Part shown: positions 3,611 through 33,638 of the stretch, in pieces
How positions within the stretch are numbered: position 1 is the stretch's first letter
How the letters are laid out: each line of letters starts with the position of its first letter
IMG/VR virus record: IMGVR_UViG_3300028550_004390
Location: 2,734-66,733 of that record
Origin: a virus
Length of the DNA: 64,000 nucleotides
Reading direction: 5' to 3' (one strand)
Made by a program: the position numbers and the translations under genes
Notes under the pieces: model-generated
Database searches by the model: none
What the model saw: the letters and a program-made list of their open reading frames with translations, nothing else
What the model was told of the DNA's origin: nothing

Positions 3611-3650
3611 TGTTAATATACGACATTTATGGTAAGAATAAAAATTTATT
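3611..3650 (-). promoter_or_regulatory. class B promoter (TTTTTAT-N~15-CGTATATTAA)
   Basis: Plus-strand ttaatatacgac...aataaaaat; motif recurs in 7 intergenic regions. Confidence 0.6.
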
Positions 3651-4674
3651 GAAGGGTATTTACAATTGCTGCTGTTGCTAAATATGGATCCACATTTGAT
3701 GACGGTCTGCGATCTTCTAAATAGCCTTTCCAAGTTTTACCTACATTCTCTGGAATTCTTATGGAAGCTCCGCGATCACTTACCCCATATGAAAATTTAC
3801 GAATATCTTGGGTTTCATGTTTTCCGGTAAGTCGCTGGTCATTGTATAGTCCGTAGACCTTCATGTGCGTGTCGTGTTGGTCCTCTAAACGCTCGCATAT
3901 AGCTTCAAAATAGCTTTTTCCACCCTTACCTCTAGTCATTTTTGTGCTGAAGTTAATATGACATCCAGACCCATTCCAATCTCCTAGCACAGGTTTTGGA
4001 TGTAGTTCTATATCTGCTTTAGCATCTTCTGCTTCACGAATTAACAAGAATCTACTTAGTATTAGATTGTCACAAACTTCTAAAGTGTCTTTACCAAACA
4101 ACTGGAATTCCCATTGCCCAAGAGTAACCTCGGCATTTACCCCAGTTATGTCCATTCCAGCTGCTATGCATTGTTCGGCATGTTCTTCACATATCCATCT
4201 GCCAGCTACATTCTTATTTCCAGATGCACAATAGTTTTCACCTTGTGGTGGTGGAGTTCCTTTTGCTGGCCATCCCATTGGTCTTCCATCTTTGAATATA
4301 AAGTATTCCTGTTCAAATCCCCACCAATACTGGTTCTTAGTATATAGGTCTTTGAACTCTCTTAGTTTGGCTCTGGTGTTTGACTCATGAACTGTTCCGT
4401 CGGCATTGTAGACTTCACACAAAACTAATAGATGAGAATTATCATATCCATTTGGGATTATTCGTACAGGTTTCAGAACACAGTCAGAACTATTTCCATC
4501 GGCCTGTTTAGTAGAACTACCGTCAAAGTTCCATTCTGGAAGATCTTCTACCATAACTATGGATGAGTCCATGTCATTTATATATCTTACTTTACTTCTG
4601 ATGTTCTGGACATCATAACCATCAAGCCAAATATACTCGGCTTTTAGGACTTTTTGATTTAAATTATTTATCAT
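3646..4674 (-). CDS. glnII: glutamine synthetase, type II (auxiliary metabolic gene)
   Basis: AEYIWLDG, PEWNFDGSST.QA.G.SSD, GFEQEY, NAEV..GQWEFQ, HPKP..GDWNGSGCH.NFS, RLTGKHET, DRGASIRIP, GYLEDRRPSSN.DPY; likely start ATG 4674. Confidence 0.95.
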   Translation of the reverse strand: MINNLNQKVLKAEYIWLDGYDVQNIRSKVRYINDMDSSIVMVEDLPEWNFDGSSTKQADGNSSDCVLKPVRIIPNGYDNSHLLVLCEVYNADGTVHESNTRAKLREFKDLYTKNQYWWGFEQEYFIFKDGRPMGWPAKGTPPPQGENYCASGNKNVAGRWICEEHAEQCIAAGMDITGVNAEVTLGQWEFQLFGKDTLEVCDNLILSRFLLIREAEDAKADIELHPKPVLGDWNGSGCHINFSTKMTRGKGGKSYFEAICERLEDQHDTHMKVYGLYNDQRLTGKHETQDIRKFSYGVSDRGASIRIPENVGKTWKGYLEDRRPSSNVDPYLATAAIVNTLQ

Positions 4675-4897
4675 ATTTAGGCCATAACTTTTTAGGACAA
4701 CTTTCAGATGCCCAGATTGTTTTTGTGCGGATACGACATCCACATTCTTTACATTTTATTTTCTTCGCATCAAAGCTTGGGCAGGAAAAACATATAAGCT
4801 TTCTCCTCAACTCTACTTCAAATGGAACATCTGTGGGATCTTTCGATCTGCGCCACAACGCCTTTATAAATGTGAATACTACTTTAATAGTTTTCAA
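4664..4897 (-). CDS. small Cys-rich zinc-binding protein
   Basis: CxxC...CxxCGC...CP pattern. Confidence 0.65.
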   Translation of the reverse strand: MKTIKVVFTFIKALWRRSKDPTDVPFEVELRRKLICFSCPSFDAKKIKCKECGCRIRTKTIWASESCPKKLWPKYDK

Positions 4898-11597: not shown

Positions 11598-12665
11598 TTA
11601 GAATATTACATAGTTGACGCCGATAGAAAAATCGTGCCAAGCTCTGTTCCAGTATTTGTTATATTTTCCTTCTGCAAACACTCCAAGGTGCTTATCAAAT
11701 TTATATCCAAAAATTAAACCTCCTGAGAAGTCTGTCCATTGTCCATCATTGAATTCATGATAGCTAAATTCATTGTTGCCTTGTATATGGTATGGCATTA
11801 GGTTACCCCAAGAATGTAACCAAAAGTCTTTAGTGTAGTAATAGTAATCAAAGCCTACGACTAATGAATGTTGTAGGTTGTTAGCTAGTTTATTCCTTTC
11901 TTGTTCTGTATAGTCAGCTAATACATCAGGTATAACAACACCTTCCCATATCTGGATATTCTCTGCTACTAGAGTTCCTGAAGGGTCATAGTATGTTTCT
12001 CCACCTATTCCGTCAAAGTCTATTGTATAACCTTGTTGCAATGCTAGATCTGTATAGTGTAGATTACCATTTGACAATAGCCAATCTGATAGAGGATCAT
12101 ACCCATAAGGTTCTGATAGTCTTTGTACTGTTCCAATATTTAGGGATAGCTTTTTGCCTATGTTATATCTATACCTCTGTGAAGACTCGAAGTATTCTAT
12201 ATCTGCAAAGCCATCTTGTAAATATTCTACTTTTGCTATCCAATCATCAGCTACATACCTAAGGAAGTGATGCTGATTTAGAAAGTTAGTTCCTTGCTGT
12301 CTTGTGTAGTCACCTTCAAATAAGAATTCAAAGCCTTTTATCTTACCAATCGTTGCAGCATCTGCATATGAATTTTCAGTTCCATCATAAAATACTTTTT
12401 CTCTATTCTCATATCCCAATCTAGCAATCTTTCTTATGCCGAATGTAATTGAATAGTCGAATGGTGTTTCAATGACTTCTGTTTGTAATCCATTTGTAAT
12501 AGAATATACATCTACATCAGATATAGAATTTCCCCCATTTACTGCACCATAGAATGTTGCAAACTTGAAAGTCTTCTTTAGGTTCTTATTGAATGCACTT
12601 TGCTCCTGGCTTATTCCCAAGATAGGGATTAGAAGTAATAGTACTGATAATAAAAGGTTTCTCAT
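11598..12665 (-). CDS. putative outer-membrane beta-barrel protein
   Basis: Sec signal peptide, aromatic-rich alternating strands, C-terminal GVNYVIF (BAM beta-signal-like). Confidence 0.65.
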   Translation of the reverse strand: MRNLLLSVLLLLIPILGISQEQSAFNKNLKKTFKFATFYGAVNGGNSISDVDVYSITNGLQTEVIETPFDYSITFGIRKIARLGYENREKVFYDGTENSYADAATIGKIKGFEFLFEGDYTRQQGTNFLNQHHFLRYVADDWIAKVEYLQDGFADIEYFESSQRYRYNIGKKLSLNIGTVQRLSEPYGYDPLSDWLLSNGNLHYTDLALQQGYTIDFDGIGGETYYDPSGTLVAENIQIWEGVVIPDVLADYTEQERNKLANNLQHSLVVGFDYYYYTKDFWLHSWGNLMPYHIQGNNEFSYHEFNDGQWTDFSGGLIFGYKFDKHLGVFAEGKYNKYWNRAWHDFSIGVNYVIF

Positions 12666-13567
12666 TTCTTTATATCCATTTTTTTGTTTTTTATGTATTC
12701 AACCATAATCTTTATCTTAGGCTTATACCAATCCGGAGTCCTGTCTATTATACCAAGGTATTCCGACTTCTCTTCGTCCATTCTAACAGTTATCTGGAGA
12801 TCTGTCAAGTTTAAAAGGATTTGGCTAGATGTTGATAGAACATCCTTATCGGTTGAGTTTTGCACTTTGTCTTTGTCTCTATAAGGATTGTCCCTCATAT
12901 TCACTGGATAGTAGCCGCTTAGGCCATCTAATATATCTAGTGGGTTTTTAGCTTTAGTTAAAACTGCGTGAGCAATATTCCATCTTGATTCTGATGATTT
13001 CCTATTTGCCCCGGATGTATATCCTGAATCTTTGTATTCGTAACCATGATTAGTCCTAACATGGTTTAAGCTTCTATCCATTTTATTTATCGTTGGAGAA
13101 TGCTTAGAGGTCATTTCTATAGAGACAGAGTTTTTAGGGTCTGCTATGAATGTATGCCCCTTGACACCAATATCTAGTTTATCCTTTCCAAAAAATTTAA
13201 TTAGGGATTCAATGGACTTAGCGATTGTTGGATAGCTTAAAGCTTTTCTAATTTTGAGACCATCCTCAGAGACTTTACCTTTGTGCTTAATGATCTTCTT
13301 TTCTTTCTCATCAGCATTTACCATCAATGCTGAATTTAGAATGCCTATTCCTGCAGAGTTCATACCTTCAGACCAATCTGTTTCGTCGTCCAATATGTAT
13401 ACCAATTCAATATCACCTATCAATTCTCTTACAACATTTACCTTAGCATCGTAAGCTCGGTCACGATTCTTTGCTAATAATACTTTATTACCTAGTACTG
13501 AATGTGTTATTATGCATTCATTTAGGGTGGCTTTAGGTTTTATTAATATGTTTTTGAGCTTAATCAT
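12662..13567 (-). CDS. Ntn-hydrolase (peptidase C45/C59-like) with N-terminal leader
   Basis: LNE-CIIT...LLAKNRDR...WSEGMNSAGIGI...VRTNH...SSESRW; Cys18 is the candidate nucleophile. Confidence 0.7.
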   Translation of the reverse strand: MIKLKNILIKPKATLNECIITHSVLGNKVLLAKNRDRAYDAKVNVVRELIGDIELVYILDDETDWSEGMNSAGIGILNSALMVNADEKEKKIIKHKGKVSEDGLKIRKALSYPTIAKSIESLIKFFGKDKLDIGVKGHTFIADPKNSVSIEMTSKHSPTINKMDRSLNHVRTNHGYEYKDSGYTSGANRKSSESRWNIAHAVLTKAKNPLDILDGLSGYYPVNMRDNPYRDKDKVQNSTDKDVLSTSSQILLNLTDLQITVRMDEEKSEYLGIIDRTPDWYKPKIKIMVEYIKNKKMDIKK

Positions 13568-13866
13568 TTTATGATTCTTTTTATGGCTTGTACTGTGAAC
13601 GGATACGCCTTACCCTTTCCCTTTTCATCCCATATAACAATTTCTGATTTGTTGGTCTTTATTTTTAGTGCTGCTTTTGCCATAGTTAAAGCATTCCTAT
13701 AATCAAACACCAAAGGGTTGCCATCAACACTTGTCGTATGCTTTTGAATCATACCATCTCTATGGATAAAATAAGGGTCATCTCCACTTCTTTGGGATAT
13801 CTTTATTTGGAAATCATAGTAGATAGAATTCTTAGCTTCAGTTAATATGTCTTTAAGCTTGATCAT
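13564..13866 (-). CDS. putative internal virion protein with MIKLKDILTE leader
   Basis: Shared leader; ATGA overlaps. Confidence 0.6.
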   Translation of the reverse strand: MIKLKDILTEAKNSIYYDFQIKISQRSGDDPYFIHRDGMIQKHTTSVDGNPLVFDYRNALTMAKAALKIKTNKSEIVIWDEKGKGKAYPFTVQAIKRIIK

Positions 13867-14396
13867 TTACCATACATTCTTTTTATTACGGTTCCACCTT
13901 TCTTAAGCTTTCTTTCATAATAACCATCTTCAAGGTGTTTAATAAACTTAGGACCAACCATCTTTTCAATTTTCTTTTTATCCAAGACTACGGGTGCACC
14001 TTTAGATGCCATAATTTGATCCATTTTTTTACTGCCTTCTAGCCTATATCCGGACTTAACCATGGCGACAGCTTTTTTAACTACTGCACTTTTTGCTGCA
14101 CTTTGACCGTCAGTTGCTAATAGCTTAACCACCTTACCTCTTGTGAATATAAATGCATCTGGCATTGGGTCTTTATCTACATCTATTAACATTACTATTT
14201 CATAACTACTTTGTAGTTCACTTGCAGAGAATGCTGATAGTTGTAGACCTTCAGCTGAATAAACTGCACTATACATCTTGAATAGTTTGTCCATTATCCT
14301 TTCGTCAATAGATGAAAGCTGTTGGGATATCCACTTTTTCTTAGGGTGGTCGTCTAAGTTATAGTCTTCTTTTAATATGTCTATTAGTTTAATCAT
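13863..14396 (-). CDS. putative internal virion protein with MIKLIDILKE leader
   Basis: Likely start ATG 14396 (TAATG overlap with the upstream stop). Confidence 0.6.
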   Translation of the reverse strand: MIKLIDILKEDYNLDDHPKKKWISQQLSSIDERIMDKLFKMYSAVYSAEGLQLSAFSASELQSSYEIVMLIDVDKDPMPDAFIFTRGKVVKLLATDGQSAAKSAVVKKAVAMVKSGYRLEGSKKMDQIMASKGAPVVLDKKKIEKMVGPKFIKHLEDGYYERKLKKGGTVIKRMYGK

Positions 14397-15286
14397 TACC
14401 ATGCCTTGCAAGACCAATATCCTGCTGATGTTTTATCTTTCTTCTGGTCACACTTATGTCTTGCTCTAAATGATTTTCTTGCATCAGGATTATCCTTTCT
14501 GATCCTTTGGGTTTCTTGTCCTGCTTTCTTAGCGGCTTTACCACCTTGACCAAAGTGAACAACTTTTATATTTCCAGATGATGGATCTTTTACATAGACC
14601 TTAAACTTCTTTTGGTCACCTTGCATAGGTTTATTAAGCTTAACCTTTCTGCCTTTATACTCTGCCTCTTGAAATACAACAGGTTCTGAATGCTCTACTA
14701 GTTCTATTCTTAAAGAGCTATTTTTATATATTGATTTTTCCATGCTTTCCTTTATTAAGCTTGTTTTAGATTTAACTTCAGGATGTCTTTTTAACATTTT
14801 ATCTACTGCTGCTATATTTTTAGAACTGTCGTCCATAAAATACACTGTGTCATATCCTTTTTTAATTTGTCGTTCAATCCAATCTGCTTTAACTTTTGGA
14901 TCGGCACTACCTACCGGTACAACATATGCATCTATACCAACAGATCTTAAGAAACTAGAAACAGGAGCTCCTAAAGATCTTGCAGTTAATATAGTCACCT
15001 TCCTTGCACCCTTAGAAGATCTTCTGGCTTTATCTAATTGCTTTCTTAATAGATCTGCATTCTTTTTAATTAGCTTGGGATTCTGTAATGGTCGATCGAA
15101 ATCTTTGAAATCGAACTCTTCTTCTGGAGCAGCCTTGTATACTGCAAACTGAGCAGGGTCTAGCTTCTTAACTACCTTACCATTTTTTGTGACATATATC
15201 CATGCATCAGATTTTGCAATAGTGTCGTCGAAATCGAATACACTTAATACTTTGCCTTCCTCTAATATGCCTTTGAATTTAATCAT
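14396..15286 (-). CDS. HAD-family phosphatase-like domain fused to a basic C-terminal phage domain; MIKFKGILEE leader
   Basis: VFDFDDT (motif I), ILTAR (II), K, FMDD (IV); second module AEYKGRKVKLNKP...FRARHKC...YWSCKAW follows FQE. Confidence 0.75.
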   Translation of the reverse strand: MIKFKGILEEGKVLSVFDFDDTIAKSDAWIYVTKNGKVVKKLDPAQFAVYKAAPEEEFDFKDFDRPLQNPKLIKKNADLLRKQLDKARRSSKGARKVTILTARSLGAPVSSFLRSVGIDAYVVPVGSADPKVKADWIERQIKKGYDTVYFMDDSSKNIAAVDKMLKRHPEVKSKTSLIKESMEKSIYKNSSLRIELVEHSEPVVFQEAEYKGRKVKLNKPMQGDQKKFKVYVKDPSSGNIKVVHFGQGGKAAKKAGQETQRIRKDNPDARKSFRARHKCDQKKDKTSAGYWSCKAW

Positions 15287-15342
15287 AATGATGTGTCAGG
15301 GAACCAGTTGTCATTTTCTAATATGTTTTCTGGATCCTTCAT
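15283..15342 (-). CDS. 19-aa mini-ORF (MKDPENILENDNWFPDTSL); not in ORF track
   Basis: Fills the intergenic gap exactly, with ATGA start/stop overlaps at both ends. Confidence 0.5.
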   Translation of the reverse strand: MKDPENILENDNWFPDTSL

Positions 15343-17813
15343 TGCTTTAATATCCTTTTACTTATTCTAATCTCATCAGCTACAATAGTCATAACGTATA
15401 TCCCAGTAGGATAATCACCTAAGCTTATCTCCTTTGAAGTTTGAGATACTATTTTTTTACCATTAATATCATAAACTTCGATCTGTACGTTTAGTCTTGT
15501 ATTTACTATAAATATATCATTAGAAGGGTTTGGGTACACTACGATCATTTTACTATCAATATCATCTACACCTGCCGGCCATCCTAATTCGCAATAATCA
15601 TACATTGATTCACATGAAGCATCCCATTCTGTAGTACAACAATAGTCGTCTACATCTATTACCCAAGCAAAACATCCATCGTTTAGATAGTATGGTAAGC
15701 CTTCACCTTGGTAGCATCCTGCATCATATAGACAGCTGCCATCTTCTGTATTAACAAACTCATCGTAGTTAGCTGCTGATAGATCTGTGCATCCCATCAT
15801 AATTGTTTCGCAGAAGTTCAATGGCTCATAACATGCAGTAGAGTCATAGTTAAATGCTGTGGGGTTAGTACATCCTGAAACATAACAACATGTATTATCT
15901 AGGGAGTTTGCTAAAGGATTGAAGTTGAATGCTGCAGTATCTGTACAACCATATTCAAATGGTATACATGAATCATTGTCTACATTCGCTAGTGGGTCAT
16001 AATTAAACATTGAAGGGTAAGTACATCCAAATACCGGGAGAATACATGAATCATCATCAGTATTAACTGCTTCGTCATAGTTAAGGGCTGTAGCATCAGT
16101 ACAACCATAAATAAATGGTATGCACTCGTCATTAGTATTAGCATTAGAATCATAATTAAATGCCAAATCATTCATACATCCATAGATGAATGGAGTGCAA
16201 TTAGTTGCTACGTTTGCTGACGGATCATAATTAAACTGAGTGTCATCCATGCAACCAAATGCAGCCAATATATCACAAGAGCTATCATCGTAGTCAGCAT
16301 CATATCCTTGGGTGTAGAATTCTAAGTAACCTGCTTGAGTGCATCCAGGTAAATAGTAACATTCACCACTGTCTGTATTTGCACCATCTTCATAATTTAC
16401 AGCAAGATTGTCCATGCATCCTTCAACATAAGACTCACAGTAATTTAAACAAGTAGGTGTTCCTTCATATACAAATGGAAATTGCTTAAGGAGGTCTGTC
16501 CATGGGTTAGTTCCACTTTGGAGAACGATACCATTAGGTCCTTCCAATCTAAAACCACATTGGGCTGCAGTTGTTGCTGAATTGCCACTTGTAAAGAAAT
16601 AAACGTTAACCTCTTCATTAGAATTAAGATCTAATCCAAAAGATTCTTCATAACCATCGTCTGGTCCCATTTGGAAAGGACCGTAAATCTGATCTCCTTG
16701 AGTTATTCCTAGCCAACTACCGAACCAGCCATCTGCTCCACCGTCTGTAATGATAAGATCGTATTGGCATGTTGGATGAACGTCCATAGTATTTGCTAGG
16801 ACATCATAATTAAACATTGTAGCATCTATACAACCTAACTGTATTGGAGTGGTGCATGTGTAATCATCTACGATAGCAAGTGGATTATACTCGACATATC
16901 CAGGAGTCGTGCATCCTTCAAGTTGGTATGGTGTGCACTGAGGAACTATATATGGTCCTGATGACACTGTATCGAATTGTTGTTGTCCACCTATAGCAAA
17001 TATACTATCGCCACATGCAGTAAATACATTGAAATACCCATCTACTCCACCCCAACATGATCCGCAAAGACCATCACCAAAAGTATCATAAATAATTGTT
17101 TCAATGGTATCACCTTCAGCAACACAAAAGTAAGCTGATTGTGGAACGTCTGGGATGGTGAATCCTGTAGACGATGCGACTATATTGCTATTAACTATTA
17201 ATTCCCAAGATGTTTCATTAGGGTAGTTGTCAGGAGTAGTAATAATAATAATGCCAGTTTCCCCCATATCGCAAGGGACTGGAAGAAAGTTACATGATGA
17301 GGGTGCATTTGCCCATGGGTTGAAGTTTAAAGCTTCAGACTCCATACATCCATAAACTAAGCAGCTATAATCACAAGACCCATCGTCATTGGTAGCATTC
17401 TCATCATAATTACATGCTGCAATGTCTGCACATCCATATAGTGGTGGAGGGCAAGCTAGAAGATCGAAATATACAGTTGCTGTAGGACCTGCAAAGTCAT
17501 ATACAAACGTATTCAATCCACATGAATTAGATAGCCCGAAGAAGCCTTCACCATATGCACAGCAAATACCATCTCCAAACTCGTCATATATAACAAGGTT
17601 GTATTGTCCAGCATCGAGATTAACCATAGTCTCGTAATATGAATTGCCATCATATGTAGGAGAGGTGGCTACAATGTTAGTGTCTTGGTATATTTCCCAA
17701 GTAGTCTCACTGCCATAATTGTCTGTTTGAACTACTACATTTACCCAGCTGTCCTGTGCTACTGGGATTATTGGTAATAACGCCAGCAGTAGAAATATTA
17801 ATAAGTTTCTCAT
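15339..17813 (-). CDS. secreted Cys/Asp-rich repeat protein with T9SS C-terminal sorting domain
   Basis: Signal peptide; many GCxDxxAxNYDxxAxxDDxSC repeats; two D.FGDG.C domains; CTD IVVYPNPSND...GIYVMTIV...KRILKQ. Confidence 0.85.
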   Translation of the reverse strand: MRNLLIFLLLALLPIIPVAQDSWVNVVVQTDNYGSETTWEIYQDTNIVATSPTYDGNSYYETMVNLDAGQYNLVIYDEFGDGICCAYGEGFFGLSNSCGLNTFVYDFAGPTATVYFDLLACPPPLYGCADIAACNYDENATNDDGSCDYSCLVYGCMESEALNFNPWANAPSSCNFLPVPCDMGETGIIIITTPDNYPNETSWELIVNSNIVASSTGFTIPDVPQSAYFCVAEGDTIETIIYDTFGDGLCGSCWGGVDGYFNVFTACGDSIFAIGGQQQFDTVSSGPYIVPQCTPYQLEGCTTPGYVEYNPLAIVDDYTCTTPIQLGCIDATMFNYDVLANTMDVHPTCQYDLIITDGGADGWFGSWLGITQGDQIYGPFQMGPDDGYEESFGLDLNSNEEVNVYFFTSGNSATTAAQCGFRLEGPNGIVLQSGTNPWTDLLKQFPFVYEGTPTCLNYCESYVEGCMDNLAVNYEDGANTDSGECYYLPGCTQAGYLEFYTQGYDADYDDSSCDILAAFGCMDDTQFNYDPSANVATNCTPFIYGCMNDLAFNYDSNANTNDECIPFIYGCTDATALNYDEAVNTDDDSCILPVFGCTYPSMFNYDPLANVDNDSCIPFEYGCTDTAAFNFNPLANSLDNTCCYVSGCTNPTAFNYDSTACYEPLNFCETIMMGCTDLSAANYDEFVNTEDGSCLYDAGCYQGEGLPYYLNDGCFAWVIDVDDYCCTTEWDASCESMYDYCELGWPAGVDDIDSKMIVVYPNPSNDIFIVNTRLNVQIEVYDINGKKIVSQTSKEISLGDYPTGIYVMTIVADEIRISKRILKQ

Positions 17814-31687: not shown

Positions 31688-33349
<1,662 letters not shown>

Positions 33350-33359
33350 TTATATCTCT

Positions 33360-33638
33360 TTATACTATGGTTAATAATTCAGGTTCTCTTATGACTAGGT
33401 ATTCCTCGCCTTCATGGTCAAACTTTTTTGCCCCATGCTTTGGGTATATTACGTGGTCTCCCACTTTTGTTTGCATATCGCCACGGTCTCCACTCATTAG
33501 GTGAAAGCCAGGACCTACCGCGATTATTTCCCCGACCATTGTTGCCTCTTGGGACGTGTCAGGGATTATTACTCCGCCAGTTGTGATGTCTTGTGCATCT
33601 ACGGGCTTTAAAACTACCTTATCGGAAATTGGTTTCAT
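33360..33638 (-). CDS. groES: co-chaperonin GroES
   Basis: KPISDKVV...TTGGVIIPD...AVGPG. Confidence 0.95.
   Translation of the reverse strand: MKPISDKVVLKPVDAQDITTGGVIIPDTSQEATMVGEIIAVGPGFHLMSGDRGDMQTKVGDHVIYPKHGAKKFDHEGEEYLVIREPELLTIV

Follow-up and report, generated by a model that had tools for sequence, protein, structure and literature searches.

The locus and its genes

We analyzed a window of 64,000 nucleotides taken from the virus record IMGVR_UViG_3300028550_004390, in which positions 12662-13567 hold an intact ORF of 301 aa. A preliminary description of the window had picked out this ORF and was silent on its strand; the ORF listing bears it out and places it on the minus strand. 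The motifs quoted there are likewise exact and comprise MIKLKNILIKPKATLNE directly before CIITH, KNRDR at aa 33-37, EGMN at aa 67-70, and TNH at aa 172-174. The codons for L15-N16-E17 (13517-13525) lie directly before the codon for Cys18. The start ATG of the gene overlaps the stop of the gene upstream (ATGA), an arrangement that is also found elsewhere in this tightly packed minus-strand operon. The features of the locus are listed below; within motifs, a slash marks the boundary in front of the residue that would become N-terminal.

12662..13567, minus strand: gene for a predicted Cys-Ntn hydrolase precursor, 301 aa (leader, aa 1-17; catalytic domain, aa 18-~295), from the ORF list, the AlphaFold model, and matches to Ntn hydrolases
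13517..13567, minus strand: leader codons 1-17, MIKLKNILIKPKATLNE, made up of a capsid-targeting-like MIKLKNIL and a linker ending in L-N-E; low model confidence, leader common to the three upstream genes
13514..13516, minus strand: codon TGC for Cys18, the residue predicted to be the N-terminal nucleophile once the enzyme is mature, from its invariance in alignments and from structural superposition
13564..13866, minus strand: upstream neighbor of 100 aa with a MIKLKDILTE/A start and an unrelated body without family match, from the ORF and the leader pattern
13863..14396, minus strand: neighbor of 177 aa from the ATG at 14396 with a MIKLIDILKE/D start, without family match, from the ORF and the leader pattern
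14396..15286, minus strand: opening gene of the cluster, encoding 296 aa, with a MIKFKGILEE/G start, a HAD-like N-terminal domain (DFDDT), and a C-terminal domain similar to phrog_7595, from the ORF and family matches

Predicted fold and family membership

The AlphaFold model of the 301-aa protein has a pLDDT of 89.3 and a pTM of 0.89. Residues 1-17 are modelled with low confidence, and the leader is probably disordered, while the first strand of the model spans residues 19-25, directly after Cys18. A Foldseek search with the model returned 94 matches at E ≤ 1e-3. Among the matches listed, all are Ntn hydrolases, and the best are AAT/IAT (E 3.8e-9), CV2077, BSH, PVA, PLBD, and NAAA. Alignment with VIA-align gave Z scores of 15.7-20.8 across 200-250 aligned residues, with a value of 20.8 to 3gvz and values of 19-20 to NAAA and AAT, and the model has the four-layer alpha-beta-beta-alpha arrangement of the Ntn fold. 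The Ntn hydrolase label, which the preliminary description had guessed from motifs, is thus borne out by the fold.

The same description had proposed a fold prediction as a check on the position of Cys18. The structural alignments start at residue 18, which falls at the Ntn nucleophile position. Residue 18 of the model pairs with residue 2 of BSH, residue 1 of PVA, and residue 2 of TANGO2, as well as with the beta-chain starts of NAAA (122-131), residue 143 of acid ceramidase, and residues 225/249 of PLBD. As in other Ntn hydrolases, the nucleophile lies where the first strand begins. Cys18 is also invariant, both in the 118 close rows that cover it (118/118) and in the covering rows of the 50%-identity representatives (141/141). 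These computational comparisons show that the modelled protein adopts an Ntn-hydrolase fold with Cys18 as the nucleophile position. An 84-sequence alignment adds three conserved motifs.

13457..13471, minus strand: K33-N-R35-D36-R37, candidate active-site Arg/Asp pair; K33, R35, and D36 invariant, N34 and R37 conserved in at least 90%
13358..13369, minus strand: E67-G68-M69-N70, candidate oxyanion-hole Asn; G68 and N70 invariant, E67 conserved in at least 90%
13046..13054, minus strand: T172-N173-H174; N173 invariant, T172 and H174 conserved in at least 90%

In this alignment R35, D36, N70, N173, and R195 are all invariant, and together they resemble the active-site set of BSH and PVA. By analogy, the Arg/Asp of KNRDR and the Asn of EGMN are candidate active-site residues. 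The TNH motif pairs with a 'TNH' of P. chrysogenum AAT in a profile match that is weak (E 0.6).

At the level of sequence, the likeness to the autoproteolytic Cys-Ntn hydrolases is marginal. The window protein has no match in Pfam, even at E ≤ 1, and none in PHROGs, and a PDB sequence-profile search returned AAT alone, at the E value just given. The best NCBIfam match, NF040521 ('C45 family autoproteolytic'), reaches 29.4 bits against a cut-off of 85. Some homologs do exceed the PF03417 cut-off of 23.2 (P0169, 30.9 bits; P0086, 27.3 bits; P0168, 25.0 bits; P0093, 25.0 bits), and 1149 homologs were found at E ≤ 1e-3; relatives lie on viral contigs, roughly 540 in one set and 427 in another. The protein would be C45/C59-like in its working, yet it belongs to a separate family that has no name. 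We propose that the gene product is a Cys Ntn amidohydrolase, distantly C45/C59/NAAA-like, that is made as a masked precursor.

Conservation of the Glu-Cys junction

Whether homologs keep an xxE-C junction had been posed as a check in the preliminary description, and the answer is that they do. The junction was followed in an alignment of the query and its 120 best homologs, where 118 of the 121 rows reach the column and the other three are fragments. The residue before the Cys is Glu in 118 of 118 covering rows. Position -3 is L in 58 rows, I in 49, V in 6, T in 4, and M in 1, so that L/I/V accounts for 113 of 118. Judged from this alignment, the E-C junction is conserved beyond chance. Among homologs with the conserved junction the leader before the Cys ranges from 4 to 144 aa. 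One homolog at 95% identity has two sites, MIKLKDILTE/GKALLRE/C, and 34 of the 118 have a four-residue leader alone (MINE/C), which is too short for a targeting sequence and leaves the packaging of those homologs unexplained.

The wider family falls into three lineage-specific junction classes, namely M/C, [LIV]xE/C, and [KR]x[ASG]/C. These classes require 7 changes on a 138-tip tree as compared to a mean of 55.6 with shuffled labels; since kin share labels, this statistic is no proof of co-evolution. The M/C forms also occur in phages with an S77 protease (4/4), and gating by the protease is therefore not universal in the Ntn family. For the [KR]x[ASG]/C class, an S77 protease was detected in 0 of 9 records, and S78 (HK97-type) and ClpP proteases in 0 of the 5 largest records. 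In multidomain relatives the Cys lies deep in the chain, for example at position 1558 of 1879.

The junction could also be the product of classical autoprocessing, in which an intramolecular N-to-S acyl shift would remove the leader; the leader may then be a tag, and the prohead protease would be unneeded at E17/C18. The nearest structural and sequence relatives of the window protein (AAT, PVA, and NAAA) are autoproteolytic proenzymes, as is the family of its best, sub-threshold NCBIfam match, and the nucleophile and candidate oxyanion residues for self-cleavage are present. The very short caps, MINE/C in those 34 rows and MxKxA/C, resemble simple pro-peptides, and a Cys that lies deep in a multidomain chain is one where self-cleavage would be convenient. 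However, autoprocessing imposes no known need for Glu at -1 combined with a hydrophobic -3 position, the gp21-type motif that the alignment shows (118/118 and 113/118 rows); in autoprocessing Ntn relatives, position -1 is typically Gly. In addition, the junction comes in discrete lineage-specific classes and follows no family-wide rule, and I-L-x-E also closes the leaders of unrelated proteins that are incapable of self-cleavage. We consider autoprocessing at this site unlikely.

Prohead protease and head module in related phages

The gp21 homologs of T4, phiKZ, 201phi2-1, and SPN3US all cleave after Glu, according to the accessible text of PMC5694885 and PMC10052503. A Cys at P1' of an S77 protease is not documented in the accessible text of these two papers or of PMC9026906. 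Among 20 records with an [LIV]xE/C gene, PF03420 (S77) was found in 13, including 8 of the 8 that are at least 90% complete. All of 5 relative records carry a gp23-type MCP, and in all five the sequence QL[VLI][SK]E/[AG], with the same L-x-E motif as the leaders, is conserved before the MCP core. The window's own record gave no match to an S77 protease; it is a 39%-complete fragment that ends before the head module, and the missing match is thus uninformative. A collinear, 98%-complete relative, G011, has 33 of the 65 window ORFs in common and carries an S77 protease at 101586-102200, and synteny with it puts the head module just past the contig end. From this synteny, we infer that the window phage encodes an S77 protease.

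In a second relative, G005, the Ntn gene has the head maturation protease gene on one side and the major head protein gene on the other. Placement in the head module was rejected as a general rule, with the Ntn gene lying within it in 1 of 80 loci as located with a protease HMM built from 8 sequences. The leader gene cluster of G011 is far from the head module. We also searched for TATAAATA, the T4 late promoter consensus. It has 16 matches compared to 10.3 expected, a count that 9 of 100 shuffles reach; none of the matches lies upstream of the leader cluster on the coding strand. The only cultured carriers are the Chryseobacterium phages MA9V-1 and MA9V-2, with a homolog at 39% identity (MA9V2_239, whose junction reads FINE/C), and no virion mass spectrometry was found in the papers on these two phages.

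A leader common to adjacent genes

In the window, the leader MIKLxxILxE is common to four adjacent genes whose bodies are unrelated. The pattern MIK[LF]x[DNG]IL occurs at exactly 4 of 1004 candidate starts, and these belong to four consecutive genes. In three of these, residues 7-10 read I-L-x-E (ILTE, ILKE, and ILEE). In the Ntn protein this first site is degenerate (ILIK), and LNE is found at residues 15-17. The leaders thus end in a motif of the prohead-protease type (P1, Glu; P3, L/I), and one short leader is common to several unrelated proteins of a single phage, both of which are features of a T4-type capsid-targeting sequence (CTS). G011 encodes eight leader-bearing proteins, and its DNA gave 6 matches to the leader pattern as compared to 0 for the reversed control. 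Among cultured marine T4-like phages, the pattern gave 0 matches in Flavobacterium phage immuto, Pelagibacter phage HTVC008M, Methylophilales phage Melnitz, and Chryseobacterium phage MA9V-2. Among the best 120 homologs of the HAD-like neighbor, 73 start with a (shifted) MIKLxxILxE, and the cultured-phage matches to this neighbor cover the C-terminal domain only. A leader-sharing neighbor was found within 3 kb of the Ntn gene at 7 of 80 loci versus 25 of 1170 in the control, a comparison for which many leaders are too short.

A different explanation of the leader is that the protein is a non-virion, intracellular phage enzyme with an auxiliary metabolic or takeover role, and that its N-terminus serves folding, localization, or turnover and is cut by a host protease or another phage protease. 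The papers on the carriers MA9V-1 and MA9V-2 hold no proteomic sign of packaging, G011 and 79 of 80 loci have the cluster at a distance from the head module, and no late-promoter signal is found upstream of it. Against this, the leader matches the experimentally defined T4 CTS, as given in the accessible text of PMC9026906, in length, position, and Glu-ending layout. A single phage carries it on many small proteins that are unrelated to each other, as in the T4 internal proteins, and in G005 the gene lies between those for the protease and the MCP. Furthermore, the long relatives are polyvalent proteins, a class proposed in the accessible text of PMC5512222 to be delivered during invasion. Taken together, these observations make a role outside the virion improbable.

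We give very little credence to the leader being a DNA-level repeat that is meaningless as a peptide, be it the edge of a recombination cassette or an element for initiating translation. Such a repeat would suit four neighboring genes with coupled translation, and T4 internal-protein genes undergo shuffling, but 164 of the 395 same-residue codon pairs in the leaders (42%) use different codons, the 15 bases upstream of the leader genes are unrelated in DNA, and the leader peptide is kept in two unrelated families at body identities of 45-95%. The differing codons and the unrelated upstream DNA indicate that selection acts on the leader peptide, and the codon analysis largely refutes a repeat.

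Proposed activation of the Ntn enzyme

The comparative evidence leads us to favor, as reasonably probable, a mechanism in which a capsid-targeting leader and an S77 cut at E17/C18 arm a packaged Ntn enzyme for the next host. The leader would carry the precursor into the prohead scaffolding core, along with the three leader-bearing proteins encoded upstream. A gp21-type S77 prohead protease, which cuts after Glu in [L/I]-x-E, would then remove the leader at E17/C18, as suggested by the motif and by the relatives. By established Ntn chemistry, this cut would free the alpha-amino Cys that the mechanism needs, and the enzyme would become competent only inside the maturing head. If the analogy to T4 Alt and the internal proteins holds, the enzyme would be ejected with the DNA and would hydrolyze an amide bond of some host molecule early in infection. 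Arming by the prohead protease at LNE/C was the interpretation offered in the preliminary description, and the sequence and fold comparisons support it. Any N-terminal address tag carried by an Ntn enzyme has to be removed right up to the nucleophile. A cleavage site that abuts this residue is therefore a design necessity at the least, and it may act as a safety catch in the producing cell as well.

Processing of CTS-bearing proteins by a prohead protease is textbook knowledge for T4 and, to our knowledge, has barely been explored beyond coliphages and phiKZ-like phages. Ntn zymogens are equally well known, with activation via self-cleavage. We found no description in the open-access literature of an Ntn hydrolase coupled to prohead processing in a phage. 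What would be new, if the proposal is true, is that a viral maturation protease makes the catalytic N-terminus of a packaged enzyme and that head maturation licenses its activity. Confirmation would establish a new mode of control for injected effectors, and MIKLKDILxE would be a portable leader with which cargo could be loaded into the heads of T4-like phages abundant in marine and aquatic habitats. It would also make protease specificity readable from sequence in uncultured phages, including giant phages without a recognizable protease, and would point to a large unnamed enzyme family with a host target worth seeking.

A broader statement is possible, and we make it tentatively. A large unnamed family of Ntn effectors, with more than 1000 sequences that stand alone or in polyvalent proteins, might be catalytically dead until cut precisely at the nucleophile by a capsid maturation protease, whose specificity the residues in front of the Cys would record. 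These residues would be [LIV]-x-E for phages with gp21/S77 and, frequently following an RVASR[YF] element, [KR]-x-[ASG] for giant high-GC phages. If this general principle is true, the junction could lead to novel prohead proteases and capsid-targeting codes, and the enzyme would be a widespread injected anti-host weapon that acts on an amide substrate.

Comparison with known systems

The closest parallel to the leader is found in T4. The window leader, MIKLKDILxE, differs in sequence from the T4 CTS. The layout is shared, however, as IPI, IPII, IPIII (all internal proteins), and Alt, which are processed by gp21, also have a leader of ~10 residues that is common to unrelated small proteins and ends in [I/L]-x-E; an Asp at residue 10 of the T4 CTS blocks its maturation. 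The accessible text of PMC9026906 defines the T4 CTS as the first 10 residues of IPIII and names residues 8 and 10 as the determinants of processing. Relatives of the window phage likewise encode a protease of the gp21 family (S77) together with a capsid protein of the gp23 type, and ejection of the cargo into the host is presumed by analogy. The window phage differs in belonging to another, uncultured host lineage. Moreover, cleavage of the T4 cargo merely releases the protein, whereas here the cut site abuts the nucleophile, and cleavage would also create the active site.

In phiKZ, 201phi2-1, and SPN3US, the gp21 homologs cut at S/A/G-x-E or A-x-E and remove propeptides of 20 to 250 residues, as far as the accessible text of PMC5694885 and PMC10052503 describes them. 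Multiple sites are common in these propeptides, which is comparable to the two sites of the 95%-identical Ntn homolog. The P3 residue is S/A/G in those phages and L/I/V here, the latter being T4-like. Among the processed giant-phage proteins that the accessible text of the two papers describes, none is an Ntn enzyme that becomes active through cleavage.

The catalytic domain is most like AAT (C45, PDB 2x1c/2x1d), PVA/BSH (C59), NAAA, and acid ceramidase, with which it shares the alpha-beta-beta-alpha fold and a Cys where the first strand begins (Z 16-20). Candidate Arg/Asp, Asn, and Arg positions are conserved in the family of the window protein, and these autoproteolytic Cys-Ntn hydrolases are also precursors that require a new N-terminus. 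They differ in the residue at -1, which is small in the autoproteolytic enzymes and is a Glu inside a viral-protease motif in the window protein.

Finally, many Ntn relatives of 500-2400 aa qualify as polyvalent proteins of phages and conjugative elements in the sense of Iyer et al. 2017 (PMC5512222), which combine at least two effector domains in a single chain, whereas the window protein consists of a single domain plus the leader and lacks their multi-domain make-up. The terms Ntn, acylase, and N-terminal nucleophile are not mentioned in the accessible text of PMC5512222, which proposes that autoproteolysis by an MPTase domain frees the domains of polyvalent proteins. The domains fused to Ntn in the long relatives are Topo IB, PolyA_pol, ChaC, 2H/LigT, Zeta, GNAT, SOD, ART-PolyVal, DUF5661, and DUF5872. 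The atlas includes a cluster named 'conjugal transfer protein' that has CBAH/AAT.

Gene and genomic setting

The gene under study is placed as follows.

12662-13567, minus strand: 301-aa protein, its ATG overlapping the stop of the upstream gene

The motifs quoted for it in the preliminary description (MIKLKNILIKPKATLNE/CIITH, KNRDR, EGMN, and TNH, with a slash marking the point directly before Cys or a proposed cleavage point) were all confirmed. The protein has no match in Pfam or PHROGs, so the label Ntn hydrolase was a guess from motifs in need of a test. The window (36.9% G+C, all genes on the minus strand) comes from a large T4-like myovirus, with PHROGs matches to tail sheath, tube, baseplate hub, family-B DNA polymerase, UvsX, gp32-like SSB, DnaB-like helicase, RNR, GroEL/GroES, and others. 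Its source record, a 66.7-kb viral contig of 39% estimated completeness, contains no S77 (gp21-type prohead) protease gene. A viral contig collinear with the window, G011 (165.6 kb, 98% complete), matched 33 of 65 window ORFs in the same order (tblastn, ORFs of at least 80 aa) and carries a head module of portal, S77 protease, scaffold-like protein, and gp23-type major capsid protein (MCP) 10-15 kb past the sheath gene. Because the window's contig stops right after the sheath gene, the G011 layout suggests that the head module of the window phage is most likely simply off the fragment.

Predicted fold and position of the nucleophile

The structural model of the target, built from an 84-sequence alignment, has a mean pLDDT of 89.3 and a pTM of 0.89; residues 1-17 are of low confidence and strand 1 starts at residue 19. 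The top Foldseek matches in the PDB are exclusively Ntn hydrolases (94 at E≤1e-3), led by Penicillium chrysogenum AAT/IAT (E 3.8e-9) and followed by CV2077, bile salt hydrolases (BSH), penicillin V acylases (PVA), the PLBD/66.3-kDa protein, and NAAA. In VIA-align, 3gvz superimposes with Z 20.8 (217 residues, rmsd 2.8), and NAAA and AAT reach Z 19-20. The predicted model therefore supports the Ntn label. Alignments to processed or Met-less chains begin at model residue 18, which pairs with BSH residue 2, PVA residue 1, the NAAA beta-chain starts, acid ceramidase 143, and PLBD 249/225. The model thus places Cys18 at the nucleophile position, as had been proposed. Invariant in the 84-sequence alignment are C18, K33, R35, D36, G68, N70, G137, N173, G182, and R195, and we take the R/D, N, N, R set to resemble the BSH/PVA catalytic set. 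At the sequence level, similarity to named families is marginal: the PDB profile match to AAT has E 0.6, the "C45 family autoproteolytic" model NF040521 reaches 29.4 bits where its cut-off is 85, and PF03417 is passed by a few homologs. Judged by the model, the target belongs to an unnamed family of its own that would work like a C45/C59/NAAA enzyme.

Conservation of the junction before Cys

A homology search with the target returned 1149 matches at E≤1e-3, the best 120 of which were aligned with the query. The Cys column is covered in 118 of the 121 rows, the other three being fragments, and all 118 have Cys preceded directly by Glu; homologs do keep the xxE-C arrangement noted in the preliminary description. 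Position -3 is L (58), I (49), V (6), T (4), or M (1), and position -2 is mainly N (76 of 118). The N-terminal extension varies from four residues (MINE/C, 34 rows) through 14-19 (MIKL-type) up to ~144, and [LIV]-x-E/C is its constant end whatever its length. One 95%-identical homolog has two sites, MIKLKDILTE/GKALLRE/C. In two others, P0014 (430 aa) and P0072 (386 aa), a MIKLKDILNE leader is followed by a ~130-aa domain with an HExxH motif and a weak DUF3920 match, then LNE/C and the Ntn domain; by their sequences these appear to be minimal polyvalent proteins with protease-type motifs at both boundaries.

An exhaustive representative search gave 429 clusters at E≤1e-3, of which 150 listed representatives were aligned with the query. 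Cys is present in 141 of 141 rows covering its column. In these rows the -1 residue is A (56), E (54), M (16), S (9), G (4), Q (1), or V (1), and the -3 residue is K (44), L (27), R (26), I (16), V (9), M (2), or T (1). Three junction classes are seen among the listed representatives: M/C, the classical form with Cys exposed through Met removal; [LIV]-x-E/C; and [KR]-x-[ASG]/C. The third often occurs as a five-residue cap (MDKKA/C, MPRTA/C) on proteins of 500-2400 aa and also internally (e.g., position 1558 of 1879), frequently with an RVASR[YF] element ahead of it. The long members qualify as polyvalent proteins, carrying Topo IB, PolyA_pol, ChaC, 2H/LigT, SOD, GNAT, Zeta, ART-PolyVal, DUF5661, and DUF5872 domains. 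On a FastTree phylogeny of 138 representatives, class changes 7 times versus a mean of 55.6 (minimum 46) with shuffled labels, a statistic that speaks for lineage specificity rather than co-evolution because kin share class labels.

The records that carry class-3 genes are fragments of high-GC phages of very large size, such as G021 (288 kb, 62% G+C) and G025 (222 kb, terminal repeats). An S77 protease was detectable in 0 of 9 class-3 records, all rated incomplete so that absence is unproven, and S78 and ClpP in 0 of 5 each, also rated incomplete; S77 is present in 4 of 4 class-1 records. In G021 (L194-L209), the peptide S..RVA[AS]R[YF] is found on eight or more different proteins at N-terminal, internal, and C-terminal positions (e.g., 36232, 38704, 41929, 82727, 85343, 99899, 166841, and 223641), with 12 matches in 177,739 aa versus ~3 expected from a rough composition estimate. 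This element also stands ahead of the [KR]x[ASG]/C junction in class-3 Ntn domains and is possibly a docking or targeting element.

A leader shared with neighboring genes

The strict leader pattern M-[IVL]-K-[LFIVM]-x-[DNGEKS]-[ILV]-[LIV] has four matches among 1004 candidate starts in the window, which are four consecutive genes.

Leader-bearing genes of the window
Start 15286, minus strand: HAD-like protein, 296 aa, MIKFKGILEE/G
Start 14396, minus strand: 177-aa protein, MIKLIDILKE/D
Start 13866, minus strand: 100-aa protein, MIKLKDILTE/A
Start 13567, minus strand: target, 301 aa, MIKLKNILIKPKATLNE/C

No late-promoter signal was found upstream of this cluster using the T4 consensus. G011 has eight leader genes, its Ntn gene (MIKLRNLLHELNE/C) included, six of them grouped at 9-13 kb and the other two at 157-159 kb; the back-translated pattern occurs there 6 times versus 0 for the reversed control. 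Among 12 leader genes, different codons are used in 164 of 395 same-residue codon pairs (codons 2-10) and the 15 upstream bases are unrelated, which indicates that the leader is conserved as peptide, not DNA. The HAD-like family is unrelated to the Ntn family, and 69 of its best 120 homologs carry the leader strictly and 4 in shifted form, while most of the other 46 have near variants such as MIKLKDILLR. Residues 167-296 of the HAD-like protein (14396-15286, minus strand) form a C-terminal domain, phrog_7595, that is widespread among cultured marine phages of highly diverse types; carriers include Pelagibacter podo- and myophages, Roseobacter phages, Flavobacterium phage immuto, and Nitrosopumilaceae spindle-shaped viruses.

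Protease and capsid genes in relatives

PF03420 (Peptidase_S77) was found in 13 of 20 records with an [LIV]xE/C gene. Among these 20, the 8 with a completeness of 90% or more all have it, and the seven without a match are 34-71% complete. All five records examined encode a gp23-type MCP, each with QL[VLI][SK]E/[AG] ~45 residues ahead of a conserved VSVQPMN core, presumably the gp23 maturation site. In G005 (266 kb, 100% complete), the head maturation protease (phrog_207) is on one side of the Ntn gene (MAKLLNE/C) and the major head protein (phrog_138) on the other, an arrangement seen in 1 of 80 loci only. Two adjacent small paralogs between its protease and Ntn genes (L019, 2058-2974) have a common N-terminus, MK[KT]QNSYLIMEGSANPKNL..., which may be another lineage-specific leader. 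PF03420 also occurs in Chryseobacterium phage MA9V-2 (L002, 167084-167422). The open frame around it spans 1213 aa, which for a fused protease would be unusually large; in the MA9V-1 paper, a "prohead core protein serine protease" is listed at 4,044 bp.

Candidate arming by a capsid protease

Ntn enzymes require a free alpha-amino group on the nucleophile; thus, the precursor should be inactive and a cut at E17/C18 should arm the enzyme. The Ntn domain may remove its own leader, as its nearest relatives self-cleave. Against such autoprocessing, the junction codes are discrete and lineage-specific, the class-2 code is identical to the gp21-type motif, and I-L-x-E also ends the leaders of unrelated proteins incapable of self-cleavage. 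This pattern argues for a trans-acting capsid protease, which would cut E17/C18 and free the Cys18 alpha-amino group. Three weaknesses of this gating are that the four-residue MINE caps are left unaccounted for, that the first ILxE site is degenerate (ILIK) in the target itself, and that the search for a late-promoter signal was negative.

According to a T4 account (PMC9026906), the first 10 residues of IPIII are enough for head incorporation, the capsid targeting sequence (CTS) acts in targeting mainly via residues 4 and 7 and in processing via 8 and 10, Asp at position 10 stops processing, the Alt propeptide has 7 residues only, and CTS-bearing proteins are ejected into the host. Two further sources (PMC5694885, PMC10052503) describe gp21 homologs of T4, phiKZ, 201phi2-1, and SPN3US as cutting C-terminal to Glu after a short motif, A-x-E in SPN3US. 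Compared with the T4 CTS as described there, the window-type leader differs in sequence but has the same architecture, with 10 residues of which the eighth is L/I and the tenth E. By analogy with T4, the enzyme would be armed in the prohead and then enter the next host by ejection. The nearest folds act on lipid, bile-acid, or beta-lactam amides, or dipeptides.

We found no open-access paper combining "Ntn hydrolase," "prohead," and "phage," and related open-access listings held no such description; the main text of the polyvalent-protein paper (PMC5512222) does not mention Ntn, acylase, or N-terminal nucleophile. Here two known kinds, CTS-type cargo and an Ntn zymogen, appear to be coupled.

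Other genes near the target

15339-17813, minus strand: 824-aa protein that starts with a signal-like sequence, has Cys-rich repeats, and ends in a T9SS sorting domain (PF18962, E 3.8e-11)
11598-12665, minus strand: 355-aa protein encoded next downstream of the Ntn gene; signal peptide, C-terminus ...NYVIF
31688-33638, minus strand: GroEL/GroES pair (phrog_5725, E 4e-156; phrog_3188)
3646-4743, minus strand: glutamine-synthetase-like protein (PF00120/PF03951)

The T9SS sorting domain suggests that the phage encodes a T9SS substrate and has a Bacteroidota host; the G011 ortholog of the 824-aa protein is 38% identical. The 355-aa protein has no family match, has a C-terminal ending that looks like that of an outer-membrane beta-barrel, and, with a 72%-identical G011 ortholog, is among the best-conserved genes of the region.
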